Sequence record: KM389297.1
Direction: 5' to 3' (one strand)
DNA length: 9,022 bases
Source of the DNA: Escherichia phage CBA6
Under the pieces are notes generated by a model that saw only the letters and a list, made by a program, of their open reading frames with translations, did no database searches and was not told the origin of the DNA. The position numbers were made by a program, and so were the translations under genes. Below, piece by piece: positions 6,151 to 9,022 of the stretch. Position 1 is the stretch's first letter. Each line of letters starts with the position of its first letter.

Positions 6151-6438
6151 ATGAAGAAATATGTTCGTCTGAACACTGTACTTGAATCAGTTATAGAATA
6201 TTTCATAATGCAGCACCTCAGAGCAGAAAATGAACACGTGAGCGACGCTCTGACTTATGATCACCGGATAGTGGTTCATTCCGTCGAAATAGTGGATGAC
6301 GAATTGTTGATTGCCAATGTTGAGCATGCTCTCTGGGATGAAGTGTTAGATCAGTACGTTCAACCGAAGTTCACACAGATCGAGTTATCTGCCATGTGGC
6401 CACCTGAAACAGTTTTCAATATTGATATACAAAGTTAA
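6151..6438 (+). CDS. Hypothetical small acidic protein (95 aa)
   Basis: ATG 6151 preceded by AGGGGG (6141-6146), 17 nt after the upstream stop. About 19 Asp/Glu against about 6 Lys/Arg. Confidence 0.5.
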   Translation: MKKYVRLNTVLESVIEYFIMQHLRAENEHVSDALTYDHRIVVHSVEIVDDELLIANVEHALWDEVLDQYVQPKFTQIELSAMWPPETVFNIDIQS

Positions 6439-6516
6439 TATTCACGTCAGTCCGCGCTATTCCAGCGTTCCGTTGTCTAACACAGAAGTGTTAACCAACT
6501 TTTCAATAAAAAGTGG

Positions 6517-6544
6517 TTTACATCTTCTAAAAAGGCAGTATATT
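6517..6544 (+). promoter_or_regulatory. Sigma70-like promoter candidate (-35 TTTACA, 16-nt spacer, -10 TATATT) for the 6612 gene
   Basis: TTTACA at 6517-6522; TATATT at 6539-6544. Contains the same AAAAGGCAGTATA motif (6530-6542) seen upstream of gene 32. Lies in a 173-bp intergenic region. Confidence 0.4.
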
Positions 6545-6611
6545 AATGTTCCAGACGCACAATTGAACATTAAACTGCCAAAGAAGGTTACTACACAAAA
6601 GGGTTTTTATT

Positions 6612-7571
6612 ATGTCCTATATTCTTCATATCGAGTCCGGCCTGAAATTTGAAATTGATGGTAAAACCGCTGCTGATCTTCAAGCAGAAATCAAAGGTGC
6701 AGACCTTATCATCGGCAACGTCACGTTACGCCGTATGATGGAAGGCGTCCTCCAGTCAGCCAACGGCTTTGAACTCATTGAAGGTCTGAGCCAGGAAGAG
6801 AAAGAAGAGACTCTCGAAGCTCTTGACCGCGCTGAAGCCGAAAAAGTTAAACCGACCGAAGATGCGGGGGTTAAACAGGGCGACGGTGAATCAAATCCGG
6901 TGATTGACGCCGAAGAAACGGTTGGGCAACCTGTCGGTGATCAAAATTCCCAGACCGTCGAAGACGGTTCTCTTGAAGTCAACAAAGACGGCTCCATTTC
7001 CCTGGTAGTTGAAGGCGAAGAAGTTCTTGACGAAGAAGCGCAAGCCCGTGCTGAAGAAGTTCGCCGTCGTATGCTGGGCACAACCGTTGCTGAAGCAATC
7101 GCCGACGTTGAAAATCCGAAGGATGATCAGGCTTTAGCGAACGCGAAGGCGGTTCTGGCCAAGAAATCTTCTGAAATGCGTCCTGCGTCTTCTACTGAAG
7201 AACGCAAGCGTCGTCATAACAAACGTGAAGAAATGGTTGAAGCCGCTCGTGCTTCTAACTATGGTCCAATCCTGGCGGCGGTTGAAGCAGGGGTTACTCC
7301 TGAAGTATATTTGAGTTATGTGAACCCTGATATGCGCTGGTTCCAGTTCCCTGTCACTGAATTGGCAGACGAAGCCAATCCGCATGCCCGCACTAACACC
7401 TATGTTGATCTGGCGCCTATCGTTTCCGGCGGCTGGGGTTTCAGTCTGTATGTGAATGGTAAGTCATTCACCAAGCGTCAGAAAATCAAAGAAACTGACG
7501 CTGAATCTCTGGTAAAGGCTATCAACGAATGGCTACCTCAGGCGTTGGCCGAAGCGAAAGCTGCTGCGTAA
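6612..7571 (+). CDS. Hypothetical protein (319 aa) with acidic low-complexity central region
   Basis: ATG 6612 with GGG-rich SD 8 nt upstream. N-terminal region (about 60 aa), then an E/D-rich segment (EEKEETLEALDRAEAEKVK...EGEEVLDEEAQARAEE), then a C-terminal domain (SNYGPILAAVEAGVTPEVYLSY...GGWGFSLYVNGKSF). Followed by a strong terminator. No family recognised. Confidence 0.6.
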   Translation: MSYILHIESGLKFEIDGKTAADLQAEIKGADLIIGNVTLRRMMEGVLQSANGFELIEGLSQEEKEETLEALDRAEAEKVKPTEDAGVKQGDGESNPVIDAEETVGQPVGDQNSQTVEDGSLEVNKDGSISLVVEGEEVLDEEAQARAEEVRRRMLGTTVAEAIADVENPKDDQALANAKAVLAKKSSEMRPASSTEERKRRHNKREEMVEAARASNYGPILAAVEAGVTPEVYLSYVNPDMRWFQFPVTELADEANPHARTNTYVDLAPIVSGGWGFSLYVNGKSFTKRQKIKETDAESLVKAINEWLPQALAEAKAAA

Positions 7572-7599
7572 TTTAACTCAGAAGCATTCAATAGATGAA

Positions 7600-7633
7600 G
7601 GGGCTGCTATAATAGCAGCTCCTTTTGTTTATT
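7600..7633 (+). terminator. Rho-independent terminator
   Basis: GGGGCTGCT-ATAAT-AGCAGCTCC: 9-bp stem with one G-U pair, then TTTTGTTTATT. Starts 29 nt after the stop at 7571. Confidence 0.75.
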
Positions 7634-7643
7634 GGAGCACACC

Positions 7644-7718
7644 ATGTCGTATTCGCTCAAAGGGTTGTTGAAGCGCCCCGTACATCTGTTTGCTGTCGAA
7701 GGGGAATATCCGGCATGA
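7644..7718 (+). other. 24-codon mini-ORF with strong RBS, ending at a TGA that is in frame with the downstream kinase
   Basis: GGAG (7634-7637) with 6-nt spacer to ATG 7644; translates MSYSLKGLLKRPVHLFAVEGEYPA then TGA at 7716-7718. The kinase ORF begins 6 nt later in the same frame. Confidence 0.3.
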
Positions 7719-7724
7719 GGAGAG

Positions 7725-8294
7725 TTGTATTACGTTAAAGGCTCCAACGGTAGCGGCAAGTCCACTGTCCCTTCCTATCTGGCGGAGAATGATCCTCAGG
7801 CGTATGTCGTGACCTACAATGGCAAGATCATGCTCACAGTTTGCCCTTCCTATAACATTATCTGTATTGGTAAATATGACAAGTCTAAGTCTAAAGGTGT
7901 TGATTCCCTGAAAGATACCGAGCAGATGTTGTTCGCCTTGTCCATTGCTGATCAGCCGGAATATCTGAAATATGACGTGTTGTTTGAAGGAATCATCCCT
8001 TCAACTTTGCTCAGCTCATGGATTCCCCGCCTGACGCGCCCACCGCGCGAATTAGTCGTGCTCTTCATGGACACCCCGCTTGAAACCTGTGTTTCCCGTG
8101 TGAAATCACGCAACGGCGGCGCAGACTTCAATGAAAGCCTGGTTGTCGAAAAGTGGGAGAGAGTTCATGACCACCGCCAACGGCATAAAGGCTTGTTCCC
8201 TACCGTTCCCGCAGGTATGATGAAGTCCAATGGCCTGACTATAGAGCAGGCTGTTTTTGCGTTTCTCAATCGTGATTTTGGGAGTATTGATTGA
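7725..8294 (+). CDS. P-loop nucleotide/nucleoside kinase-like protein (189 aa); substrate unknown
   Basis: Walker A GSNGSGKST at residues 6-14 after the beta-strand-like LYYVK. The only start codon in frame after the TGA is TTG 7725; GAGG at 7717-7720 gives a 4-nt spacer. Stop TGA 8292-8294 overlaps the ATG of the next gene. Confidence 0.65.
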   Translation: MYYVKGSNGSGKSTVPSYLAENDPQAYVVTYNGKIMLTVCPSYNIICIGKYDKSKSKGVDSLKDTEQMLFALSIADQPEYLKYDVLFEGIIPSTLLSSWIPRLTRPPRELVVLFMDTPLETCVSRVKSRNGGADFNESLVVEKWERVHDHRQRHKGLFPTVPAGMMKSNGLTIEQAVFAFLNRDFGSID

Positions 8295-9022
8295 TGGAAA
8301 TTTTTGCTTTAAACAATAATGATATGCTGAAGAAGGCTGTGTTGGCCATCCGTGAACACGGCATTGAGTCAGATCCTGGCAACGCAGAGATTAACACTGA
8401 CGGCACTCGTTTCATTGATGGTGTAACAATTACAGTATCAGATCCACGTGACCGTTGGCTTTCCGTTGAAGGCCGCAACTCGTCGGCAATTGCTGCCATC
8501 GGTGAGACATTCTGGGTGTTGTCCGGACGTAATGATATCCGTTTCCTTTCGAAAGTCTTACCCCGCGCCGCCAACTTCTCTGATGACGGTGTAACCTGGC
8601 GAGGCGCGTATGGCCCACGTCTGTACAATAATGGCCAGTTGGATAGTGTCATCAGCCGTCTGCGTAATAATCCCAACACCCGTCAGGCGTATCTCACCAT
8701 CTATGATCCGGCGCTGGACTCAGATGAAGGTTTGGCCACCCATAGTGAAACTGGAGAAGCCAAGACCAAGGACATGATCTGTAATCTTGCTCTATTGTTC
8801 AGTATAACAGAAGGGCGATTGAATATCACTGTCATTAACCGCAGCCAAGATGTCTTGTGGGGCATGAGTTCAATCAATTTCATTGAATTCTCTATCCTGC
8901 AAGAAGTTCTGGCGAAAGTGCTGAATGTCGAAGTTGGGTATTACAAACTGTTTTCTAACAATCTTCATTATTACAACAATGAAGTTAGTCGGAAACAACT
9001 CGGGGGTATCACTAAGAAGACC
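8294..9022 (+). CDS. Thymidylate-synthase-family pyrimidine hydroxymethylase (T4 gp42-like), 3' end beyond window
   Basis: Not in the ORF track because no stop occurs before the window end; hand translation of frame 8294 gives 243 codons with no stop. NPNTRQAYLTIYDP, DMICNLALL, INRSQDVLWG and NNLHYY match T4 gp42 (NPDSRRGIMIYTRP, FMCTNT, NMRSNDVVFG, GSLHVY) and the TS fold. Lacks the PPCH motif of true TS and has the longer hydroxymethylase-type insertion before the catalytic Cys. Confidence 0.8.
   Translation, partial: MEIFALNNNDMLKKAVLAIREHGIESDPGNAEINTDGTRFIDGVTITVSDPRDRWLSVEGRNSSAIAAIGETFWVLSGRNDIRFLSKVLPRAANFSDDGVTWRGAYGPRLYNNGQLDSVISRLRNNPNTRQAYLTIYDPALDSDEGLATHSETGEAKTKDMICNLALLFSITEGRLNITVINRSQDVLWGMSSINFIEFSILQEVLAKVLNVEVGYYKLFSNNLHYYNNEVSRKQLGGITKKT

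Follow-up and report, generated by a model that had tools for sequence, protein, structure and literature searches.

The DNA analysed here, referred to as the window, is a contig of 9,022 nt from Escherichia phage CBA6 (sequence record KM389297.1) that is 98.9% identical to phages ECML-4 and Vi01, with all 9,022 nt covered. The gene order matches that of Vi01_075 to Vi01_060c and, judged by this similarity, the source is a ViI-like Kuttervirus of the Ackermannviridae. A reading made from the letters alone (hereafter, the sequence-only reading) had described a Walker-A kinase gene whose TGA shares one base with the ATG (8294-8296) of a gene for a hydroxymethylase of the thymidylate synthase (TS) family. 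This arrangement was indeed seen, and the annotation of Vi01 has the same one-base overlap (9145-9807 and 9807-10847). A terminator-like hairpin, identical letter for letter in Vi01 and ZQ1, follows the upstream gene (6612-7571) and precedes the kinase gene, and a simple scan from this hairpin to the ATG at 7644 returned no sigma-70 promoter. Very probably, the kinase and hydroxymethylase genes are the first two of the ViI-like nucleotide/DNA-modification operon. The features of the region are collected in Table 1.

Table 1. Features of the kinase-hydroxymethylase region in window coordinates.
Feature	Position	Strand	Remarks
Terminator-like hairpin with T-tract	7597..7625	+	13-pair stem, 6 GC pairs
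Remnant of the ancestral kinase 5' end	7644..7718	+	alignment with Vi01 CDS start; 24 codons, then premature TGA
12-nt in-frame deletion junction	7690..7691	+	relative to all relatives
Premature stop TGA	7716..7718	+	C→T at 7716; CGA (Arg29) in Vi01
Predicted 5-hmdU DNA kinase core (HMUD1, ViI gp67 ortholog)	7725..8294	+	189 codons from TTG; PF18748
Walker A / P-loop GSNGSGKST	7740..7766	+	residues 6-14 of the 189-aa ORF; fits GxxGxGK[ST]
Shine-Dalgarno-like GGGAG	8280..8284	+	9 nt upstream of the hydroxymethylase ATG; read from sequence
TGATG stop/start overlap, kinase to hydroxymethylase	8292..8296	+	one shared base, 8294
Predicted dUMP hydroxymethyltransferase, TS superfamily (ortholog of Vi01_060c 'thyA')	8294..9022	+	first 243/346 codons; contig ends here
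Catalytic Cys163 (TGT)	8780..8782	+	E. coli ThyA Cys146
Base-specificity residue Asn195 (AAT)	8876..8878	+	E. coli ThyA Asn177

The product of the kinase ORF begins MYYVKGSNGSGKST and matches the Pfam family PF18748 (HMUDK_HMUD1) with 355.3 bits (E=9.4e-107; curated cut-off, 27 bits) over profile positions 19-196 of 196. The profile search that the sequence-only reading had proposed for the kinase thus leads to HMUDK_HMUD1 and not to the dNMP or thymidylate kinases, since the Pfam models dNK (E=0.12) and Thymidylate_kin (E=0.3) gave non-significant scores below their cut-offs. Moreover, 188/189 residues of the core are identical to gp67 of Vi01 (YP_004327432), which is encoded at the same locus and named '5-hmdU DNA kinase 1' (HMUD1_BPSAV) in UniProt, and the N-G-x-G-K-S-T residues of the P-loop are invariant in 20/20 full-length gp67-type homologs. 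These comparisons identify the ORF as the ortholog of ViI gp67 (HMUD1). ViI gp67 phosphorylates 5-hmdU in DNA in vitro and, like gp243 of the same phage, forms 5-PmdU on 5-hmdU DNA (PMC8989533). Genes of this kinase family (5-HMUDK) are linked to dUMP hydroxymethyltransferase genes (PMC5889632), a linkage found here in the TGATG overlap. A sequence search for solved 5-HMUDK structures returned none (best E=0.055), and Foldseek with the AF2 model of the kinase retrieved generic P-loop kinases only (polynucleotide kinase, gluconokinase, and adenylate kinase) at TM 0.45-0.55. A more distant relative is the 5-hmdU DNA kinase gp54 (AN14_13) of Pseudomonas phage M6, which belongs to the same family and carries out the same reaction with ~30% identity; however, its gene is part of an uninterrupted cluster for hypermodification that includes radical-SAM and aGPT-Pplase genes and leads to 5-NedU and not to 5-NeOmdU.

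The assignment of the second gene to the TS family is borne out by matches to PF00303 (E=6.5e-15) and phrog_3676 (E=1.9e-144); these scores, like that of the kinase, put both ORFs well clear of chance. All 243/243 residues in the window are identical to those of a 346-aa homolog (P0026), which in turn is 99.7% identical over its full length to the Vi01 hydroxymethylase; since 243/346 codons are present, the C-terminal helical domain falls outside the window. The catalytic Cys163 is invariant in 120/120 homologs and aligns with ThyA C146 and the corresponding Cys of T4 gp42, and the counterparts of ThyA C146, R166, S167, D169, H207, Y209, and E58 are all kept (119-120/120 homologs). The sequence-only reading had regarded the residue that sets dCMP or dUMP specificity as ambiguous, because the segment WGMSSINFIEF gives Ile or Asn depending on where a gap is placed. 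Pairwise alignments do differ in this respect, as the Asn falls on Asn against TS and the Ile falls on Asp against MilA. The alignment of the homologs places Asn195, and not an Asp, in the specificity column, which holds Asn in 113/120 homologs and Asp in 7/120 and is preceded by a column that is always hydrophobic. Since Asn195 shares its column with Asn177 of ThyA and with the corresponding Asn in SP10, M6-like, and SPO1-like enzymes, the substrate would be dUMP. The conserved residues, Asn195, and the chemistry of ViI DNA, in which 5-NeOmdU is formed from 5-hmdU and dC is canonical, together suggest that the enzyme converts dUMP into 5-hmdUMP and does not make dTMP or 5-hmdCMP.

Homologs of this hydroxymethylase occur in the 5-hmdU-based phages SP10, M6-like, and SPO1-like. 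Together with ViI Vi01_060c, these enzymes have in common with the CBA6 protein the catalytic Cys, the Arg, Ser, Asp, His, and Tyr residues, and the Asn at the specificity position, although the SP10, M6, and SPO1-type enzymes exhibit only 26-35% identity to it. In this subfamily, the specificity residue is shifted one position downstream, to G+5, relative to ThyA and T4 gp42, a spacing common to the CBA6, M6-like, and SPO1-like enzymes, whereas T4 gp42 contains an Asp at G+4. T4 gp42 and E. coli ThyA share with the CBA6 enzyme the fold and the covalent-Cys, methylene-tetrahydrofolate chemistry, but only 18-19% identity; a C-terminal extension of ~110 aa sets the latter apart, and ThyA His147 and Trp80 are replaced in it by Asn and Ala, respectively. 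The AF2 model of a 100%-identical full-length homolog (pLDDT 95.4) finds its best solved match in the pyrimidine hydroxymethylase MilA, the CMP 5-hydroxymethylase of Streptomyces rimofaciens (PDB 5jnh, 5b6d; sequence E=5e-18), with TM 0.73 over ~350 columns, including the C-terminal helical domain, versus ~0.55 for TS. However, MilA contains Asp at the specificity position, acts on CMP, and is only ~20% identical. The Asn/Asp toggle in the Asn195 column could be used to call uracil versus cytosine specificity.

A T4-like hydroxymethylcytosine (hmC) module, in which a dCMP hydroxymethylase would be paired with a kinase of free nucleotides (a dNMP or thymidylate kinase), might be expected from the distant relationship of both proteins to those families, from RefSeq/GenBank labels such as 'thymidylate synthase', 'thymidylate kinase', and 'cytidylate kinase', and from the fact that the nearest solved hydroxymethylase structure is that of the CMP enzyme MilA. 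This interpretation is already contradicted and appears vanishingly improbable. The specificity column contains Asn and not Asp, the dNK and Thymidylate_kin scores stand against an E-value of 9e-107 for HMUDK, and relatives encode a separate dNMP kinase (phrog_139) after the hydroxymethylase. Moreover, ViI-like DNA contains canonical, unmodified dC together with a 301-Da thymidine derivative, and no glucosyltransferase annotation is present in the 19.5-kb neighbourhood of Vi01. None of the findings that the sequence-only reading had named as telling against it was obtained, and its suggestion of a module that makes a base other than T4-type hmC, with a dUMP hydroxymethylase and a P-loop 5-hmdU DNA kinase, agrees with the PF18748 score, the gp67 orthology, and Asn195. 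Thus, HMUD1 (a gp67-type 5-hmdU DNA kinase) overlapping by one base with a TS-superfamily dUMP hydroxymethyltransferase is, with high confidence, the best explanation of the region.

In the corresponding pathway, the hydroxymethylase would use Cys163 and methylene-tetrahydrofolate to convert dUMP into 5-hmdUMP. In relatives, its gene is followed downstream by those of a dNMP kinase (phrog_139, 9e-48) and a dUTPase_2-type NTP pyrophosphatase (phrog_173), which may, respectively, lift 5-hmdUMP towards the triphosphate and clear competing dUTP/dTTP, after which the polymerase would incorporate 5-hmdU. The 5-hmdU DNA kinase would then move one ATP phosphate onto the hydroxymethyl group of 5-hmdU in DNA, as demonstrated in vitro with ViI gp67 and gp243. 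In ViI, gp247 (a serine:DNA transferase) and gp226 (a PLP decarboxylase) have been shown to complete the route to 5-(2-aminoethoxy)methyl-dU (5-NeOmdU). In Vi01, gp243 matches PF18747 HMUD2 and gp247 matches PF18724 ADDT, while gp226 reaches a sub-threshold 30.7 bits against PALP (cut-off 35). Judging from its 99%-identical relatives, CBA6 presumably also encodes HMUD2, the serine transferase, and the PLP decarboxylase. What the sequence-only reading had offered as a candidate module is already published, as the gene pair and the pathway are those of the characterised thymidine-hypermodification system of ViI, and the module is not new. The ViI pathway was reportedly predicted in 2016, its product identified in 2018, and its enzymology described in 2021. 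In ViI, for which the pathway has been reconstituted (PMC8989533, PMC5889632) and gp226 has been shown experimentally to be a PLP-dependent decarboxylase (PMC8989533), 5-NeOmdU stands in place of ~40% of T and blocks restriction enzymes.

The new detail of this locus is a 12-nt deletion and a premature stop codon near the start of the kinase gene, which recur in an independent Logan assembly of SRR547957 and were seen in no other sequence searched. In Vi01 and all other relatives, the kinase gene begins at the counterpart of the window ATG 7644, 81 nt upstream of TTG 7725, and encodes 220 aa. In CBA6, this ancestral start (SD GGAG at 7634-7637) opens a frame of 24 codons with the translation MSYSLKGLLKRPVHLFAVEGEYPA, and the nonsense codon occupies residue 25 of the CBA6 HMUD1 frame. 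The residues taken out by the deletion, V17-K18-P19-P20 in the numbering of ViI gp67, belong to the conserved VH-F-KPP motif. Thus, the CBA6 allele resembles ViI gp67 in its genomic position, P-loop, and one-base overlap with the hydroxymethylase gene but differs from it in the loss of VKPP (residues 17-20) and in the stop at the Arg29 codon, with only the last 189 of the 220 codons forming the open frame; full-length Vi01 gp67 covers PF18748 positions 1-196, whereas positions 1-18 are absent from the window ORF and the domain is incomplete. TTG 7725 is the first start codon past the TGA and the sole start that retains the P-loop, with GGAG 2 nt upstream (7719-7722). The alignment with relatives indicates that the TTG 'start' is a remnant and that the kinase is not naturally a protein of 189 aa beginning at the P-loop. 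The short length remarked on in the sequence-only reading, like the position of the P-loop at the N-terminus, is due to the nonsense mutation and not to family design. A frameshift route around the stop was considered and rejected, as the +1-frame ATG at 7715 closes after 7 codons.

The stop and the deletion could be sequencing or assembly artefacts, or minority variants, in a phage that really encodes a normal 220-aa HMUD1, and it is true that the 9-kb contig comes from a fragmented draft and that the variant is confined to one data set. The lesion was found in 0/48 phage records of close relatives, all of which keep the extra 12 nt and the CGA (the search query spans 151 nt and the matching stretch 163 nt in all 48 records), and the deletion-junction pattern gave 0 matches in IMG/VR. 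Among the other listed members of the 49-member kinase protein cluster (40 were read and 15 listed), which all measure 220-224 aa, none shows it, nor do 10 contigs that share the upstream gene unchanged (kinases of 220-223 aa), and a Salmonella enterica contig (L004) whose hydroxymethylase is 100% identical over the 243 residues encodes an intact 220-aa kinase. However, the Logan assembly of SRR547957 agrees base for base with the NCBI contig over 4,768 nt, both lesions included, every other gene in the window is intact, and homopolymer or low-coverage errors do not typically take the form of a clean 12-nt deletion together with a substitution. An artefact is, therefore, improbable. Once the two lesions are set aside, only 2 substitutions separate CBA6 from Vi01 between positions 7572 and 9022, which points to recent lesions and shows no trace of decay or of ongoing selection.

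Regarding the consequence of genuine lesions, full-length HMUD1 in CBA6 would be obtainable only through rare UGA read-through, and the gene is probably either crippled or limited to making a truncated core. Re-initiation at TTG 7725, or direct initiation on the adjoining GGAG, might still produce an active 189-aa core and leave the pathway unaffected. From the TTG onwards, the 189 codons are undamaged and their product departs from that of Vi01 at a single amino acid, and the TTG lies 6 nt beyond the stop; the SD spacing is poor, yet termination/re-initiation at this distance is possible. Moreover, the M6-type 5-HMUDK, of 187 aa, naturally begins MKYINVRGCNGSGKTT without the extension, two residues before the first strand and just ahead of the P-loop strand like the TTG product, and it is active (PMC8989533). 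Since this member lacks the N-terminal segment and is active, the segment is not family-defining. Nevertheless, the extension is found in every homolog of the Ackermannviridae clade down to 55% identity with nearly invariant residues (V13, H14, F16, and P19 are conserved, P19 nearly invariantly), falls within the Pfam domain, and is structured with high confidence in the AF2 model. A 2-nt SD-to-start spacing and a TTG codon also predict weak initiation. Since ZQ1 has ATC in place of the TTG, this start is not a conserved one, and nothing hints at a naturally short isoform. A functional truncated kinase is thus a serious but distinctly less probable outcome. Somewhat favoured over the other outcomes is a null or strongly hypomorphic HMUD1 allele, whose loss would, we propose, be buffered by HMUD2 (gp243), the second 5-hmdU DNA kinase of ViI-like phages.

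A nonsense allele in one of two paralogous DNA-base kinases is a natural mutant that could be used to assess redundancy. With about even confidence, the contig is taken to represent a viable Kuttervirus in which HMUD1 has been naturally knocked out or N-terminally truncated, which would offer a ready-made test of HMUD1/HMUD2 redundancy, of the level and pattern of 5-NeOmdU, and of the need for the N-terminal extension. If so, CBA6 could show whether HMUD1/gp67 and HMUD2/gp243 are redundant or whether the amount or sequence pattern of the modification depends on them (e.g., less than ~40% of T, or another site preference), and it would reveal how far HMUD1 depends on its conserved extension.

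Annotation of these genes deserves attention in related genomes. The 174-aa 'kinases' of vB_EcoM-ZQ1 and A221 were considered as independent truncations and rejected, since the ZQ1 DNA has an intact full-length frame and the short products reflect mis-called GTG starts. In RefSeq and PHROGs, HMUD1 also commonly goes under wrong names ('terminase small subunit', 'baseplate hub', or 'thymidylate kinase'), and the hydroxymethylase is wrongly called 'thymidylate synthase'.

The overlapping kinase and hydroxymethylase genes at the end of the window are part of, and work like, the published thymidine-hypermodification system of Salmonella phage ViI (Vi01); this kinase/hydroxymethylase system is already known. 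Both open reading frames are real genes with profile matches, which confirms what the sequence-only reading had seen, a P-loop kinase overlapping a thymidylate synthase (TS)-family hydroxymethylase. The kinase matches PF18748 ('HMUDK_HMUD1, 5-hmdU DNA kinase', E=9.4e-107), with no significant match to the Pfam deoxynucleoside kinase (E=0.12) or thymidylate kinase (E=0.3) families, and base 8294 belongs both to its TGA (8292-8294) and to the ATG of the hydroxymethylase, which is cut off by the end of the window (9022) and matches PF00303 (thymidylate synthase, E=6.5e-15) and phrog_3676 (E=1.9e-144). This kinase has already been described as ViI gp67 (HMUD1; HMUD1_BPSAV in UniProt), encoded in Vi01 by Vi01_061c (YP_004327432). 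Its 189-aa product differs from Vi01 at one position, Vi01 being the odd one out, and this exact protein is on record in a single NCBI contig only; as that contig measures 9,022 bp, the window corresponds to all of it, and the hydroxymethylase gene is interrupted where the contig stops. Gp67, its paralog gp243, M6 gp54, ΦW-14 gp37 and SP10 gp186 each convert 5-hmdU in DNA into 5-phosphomethyl-dU, with ADP as a by-product (PMC8989533). Moreover, 5-(2-aminoethoxy)methyl-dU has been reconstituted with gp67, gp160, gp226, gp243 and gp247 together, and a dUMP hydroxymethyltransferase co-occurs with 5-HMUDK (PMC5889632). HMUD1 kinases are widely mis-annotated as 'terminase small subunit', both in RefSeq and in phrog_800 (the separate small terminase of Vi01 is Vi01_162c), and orthologs also carry the labels 'baseplate hub', 'thymidylate kinase' and 'cytidylate kinase'.

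At the specificity site of TS and T4 gp42, Asn reads uracil and Asp reads cytosine, and swapping the residue swaps the specificity. The earlier choice between Ile and Asn at this site reflects a real ambiguity of pairwise HMMER alignments, in which the Asn of GMSSIN pairs with the TS Asn and, against MilA, the Ile pairs with Asp. A MAFFT alignment of 120 homologs plus reference sequences settles the residue as Asn: the column five residues past the invariant Gly (G190) holds Asn (113) or Asp (7) and no other residue, and only hydrophobic residues fill the column ahead of it (Ile 103, Val 7, Ala 7). This Asn/Asp column aligns with Asn177 of E. coli ThyA and with Asn in the enzymes of SP10, AN14 (an M6-species phage) and CampHawk (SPO1-like); for the hydroxymethylases of the SP10, M6 and SPO1-like phage groups, dUMP is the known or accepted substrate. 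A loop longer by one residue is common to the M6-like, SPO1-like and window proteins (GAYGAN, GTFGAN, GMSSIN), and the window enzyme conserves the catalytic Cys163 and the equivalents of ThyA E58, R126, R166, S167, D169, H207 and Y209. The AF2 model of a full-length homolog (P0026; 346 aa, 100% identical across the window's 243 residues; pLDDT 95.4) finds its best solved match in MilA, a CMP hydroxymethylase (TM 0.73, including the C-terminal helical domain), with thymidylate synthases ranking behind (TM ~0.55). In published LC-MS of DNA from ViI, CBA6, CBA120 and 1.255.O, dC is canonical and one extra nucleoside stands in place of ~40% of thymidine. On the basis of the family alignment, conserved residues, structural model and base composition, the enzyme is predicted to be a dUMP hydroxymethyltransferase; no direct assay of the ViI hydroxymethylase was found in PMC8989533 or PMC5889632. 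The Asn site and the gp67 orthology thus support the suggested pairing of a dUMP hydroxymethylase with a 5-hmdU DNA kinase, whereas a T4-type hmC module fails as a reading, since the window pair shows neither of the two defining features tested: the specificity site is not Asp, and the kinase is not of the dNMP-kinase family.

The seven homologs with Asp in this column (GFSGID...; P0086, P0107, P0117, P0121, P0128, P0139 and P0145) are candidate dCMP or CMP hydroxymethylases inside a mostly uracil-specific clade. Past the window, residues 245-346 of P0026 are predicted with confidence to fold into a helical C-terminal domain of ~100 aa, which is present in MilA, SP10, M6 and SPO1-type enzymes, whereas it is absent from E. 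coli ThyA and T4 gp42.

Features of the window and of the pathway genes in its relatives (L004, phage contig from a Salmonella assembly)
Feature	Position	Strand	Details
Tail tube gene	3636-4580	-	overlaps substitution-rich 1 kb (3500-4500)
Terminator-like hairpin, 13 bp	7597-7625		just upstream of kinase gene
Original ATG of HMUD1	7644	+	GGAG 6 nt upstream (alignment with Vi01)
12-nt deletion	between 7690 and 7691		loses V17-K18-P19-P20 of gp67
Premature stop	7716		C->T, Arg29 CGA -> TGA
Kinase ORF, 189 codons	7725-8294	+	TTG start, reads MYYVKGSNGSGKST...
Hydroxymethylase ORF, 243 codons	8294-9022	+	runs to last base of window
dNMP kinase (Vi01, L004)	directly after hydroxymethylase, four-base overlap		phrog_139, E=9e-48
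dUTPase_2-type NTP pyrophosphohydrolase (Vi01, L004)	second after hydroxymethylase		PF08761, phrog_173
ACT-like protein (Vi01, L004)	third after hydroxymethylase
gp243 (Vi01)			PF18747, 'HMUD2'
gp247 (Vi01)			PF18724, 'amino acid:DNA transferase'
gp226 (Vi01)			PALP match sub-threshold, 30.7 bits vs cut-off 35

What is left as a curiosity is that one of two paralogous DNA-base kinases is represented here by a natural nonsense allele. Full-length gp67 has 220 aa and covers Pfam positions 1-196, whereas the window ORF covers positions 19-196 only, because of the deletion and the premature TGA revealed by alignment with Vi01; the TTG (Leu32 in Vi01) is simply where translation could first start past the TGA. 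The deletion is the sole indel relative to Vi01 across the entire 9 kb, and besides the two lesions the kinase-hydroxymethylase region (7572-9022) holds only two other substitutions. The 174-aa 'putative kinase' of phages ZQ1 and A221, considered as a truncation, was rejected as a mis-called start on an intact gene: it begins at a GTG past the P-loop (L003 1290-1560, vB_EcoM-ZQ1, MW650886) and the upstream frame is intact, so that the annotated protein lacks its first 46 residues, and with them the Walker A motif.

The lesions are absent from 48 close phage records, from IMG/VR, from the other members listed of the 49-member 90% cluster (40 read, 15 listed; all 220-224 aa) and from ten contigs with an identical upstream gene. 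This absence from every other sequence searched would suit an artefact or a minority variant; however, both lesions recur in the Logan assembly of run SRR547957, which matches window 4213-8980 at 100% identity, and such an origin is improbable. The allele is rather somewhat favoured to be a null or strong hypomorph, tolerated thanks to HMUD2. Impairment is argued by V13, H14, F16 and P19, which are nearly invariant among HMUD1 homologs down to 52% identity, and by the AF2 model, with a strand at residues 9-12 and pLDDT ~90 over residues 11-30; judged by both, the lost segment would not be a floppy tail. Moreover, initiation at the TTG, with GGAG merely 2 nt upstream, should be weak, although re-initiation 6 nt past the TGA is plausible. 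Conversely, the active M6 kinase (187 aa, beginning MKYINVRGCNGSGKTT) can be aligned one to one with the residues of the TTG product, and thus an extension-free core is able to support catalysis in this family. That the truncated HMUD1 core is functional is plausible, if less favoured, given the near-invariant, predicted structured segment and the weak start. In any case, the hydroxymethylase could be translated without coupling, as a GGGAG of its own lies 9 nt ahead of its ATG.

By megablast, the entire window has its home in the ViI-like phages (Kuttervirus, Ackermannviridae); along its full 9,022 nt it is 98.9% identical to Escherichia phage ECML-4 and Vi01. Its gene order is that of Vi01_075 to Vi01_060c: Gp26 baseplate hub, RuvC-like resolvase, gp33, gp32 SSB, tail tube, DNA end protector, three unknowns, and then the HMUD1 kinase and 'thyA'. 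Gene context past the window was read from relatives alone, where three genes follow the hydroxymethylase in both Vi01 and L004, with UvsX and the gp41 helicase next, and the later pathway genes lie ~100 kb off in Vi01. Among these, gp226 has PLP-dependent decarboxylase activity (PMC8989533). Positions 3500-4500 hold 62 of the 91 substitutions relative to Vi01, the remainder of the window being ~99.6% identical, a pattern that resembles a mosaic or recombined patch within the tail-tube gene. Directly upstream of the kinase, an uncharacterised acidic protein of 319 aa (6612-7571; phrog_3905, no Pfam match) is kept at every Kuttervirus locus examined. The hairpin that follows, its tip spanned by TATAAT, is perfectly conserved even in ZQ1, despite diverged flanking coding sequence.
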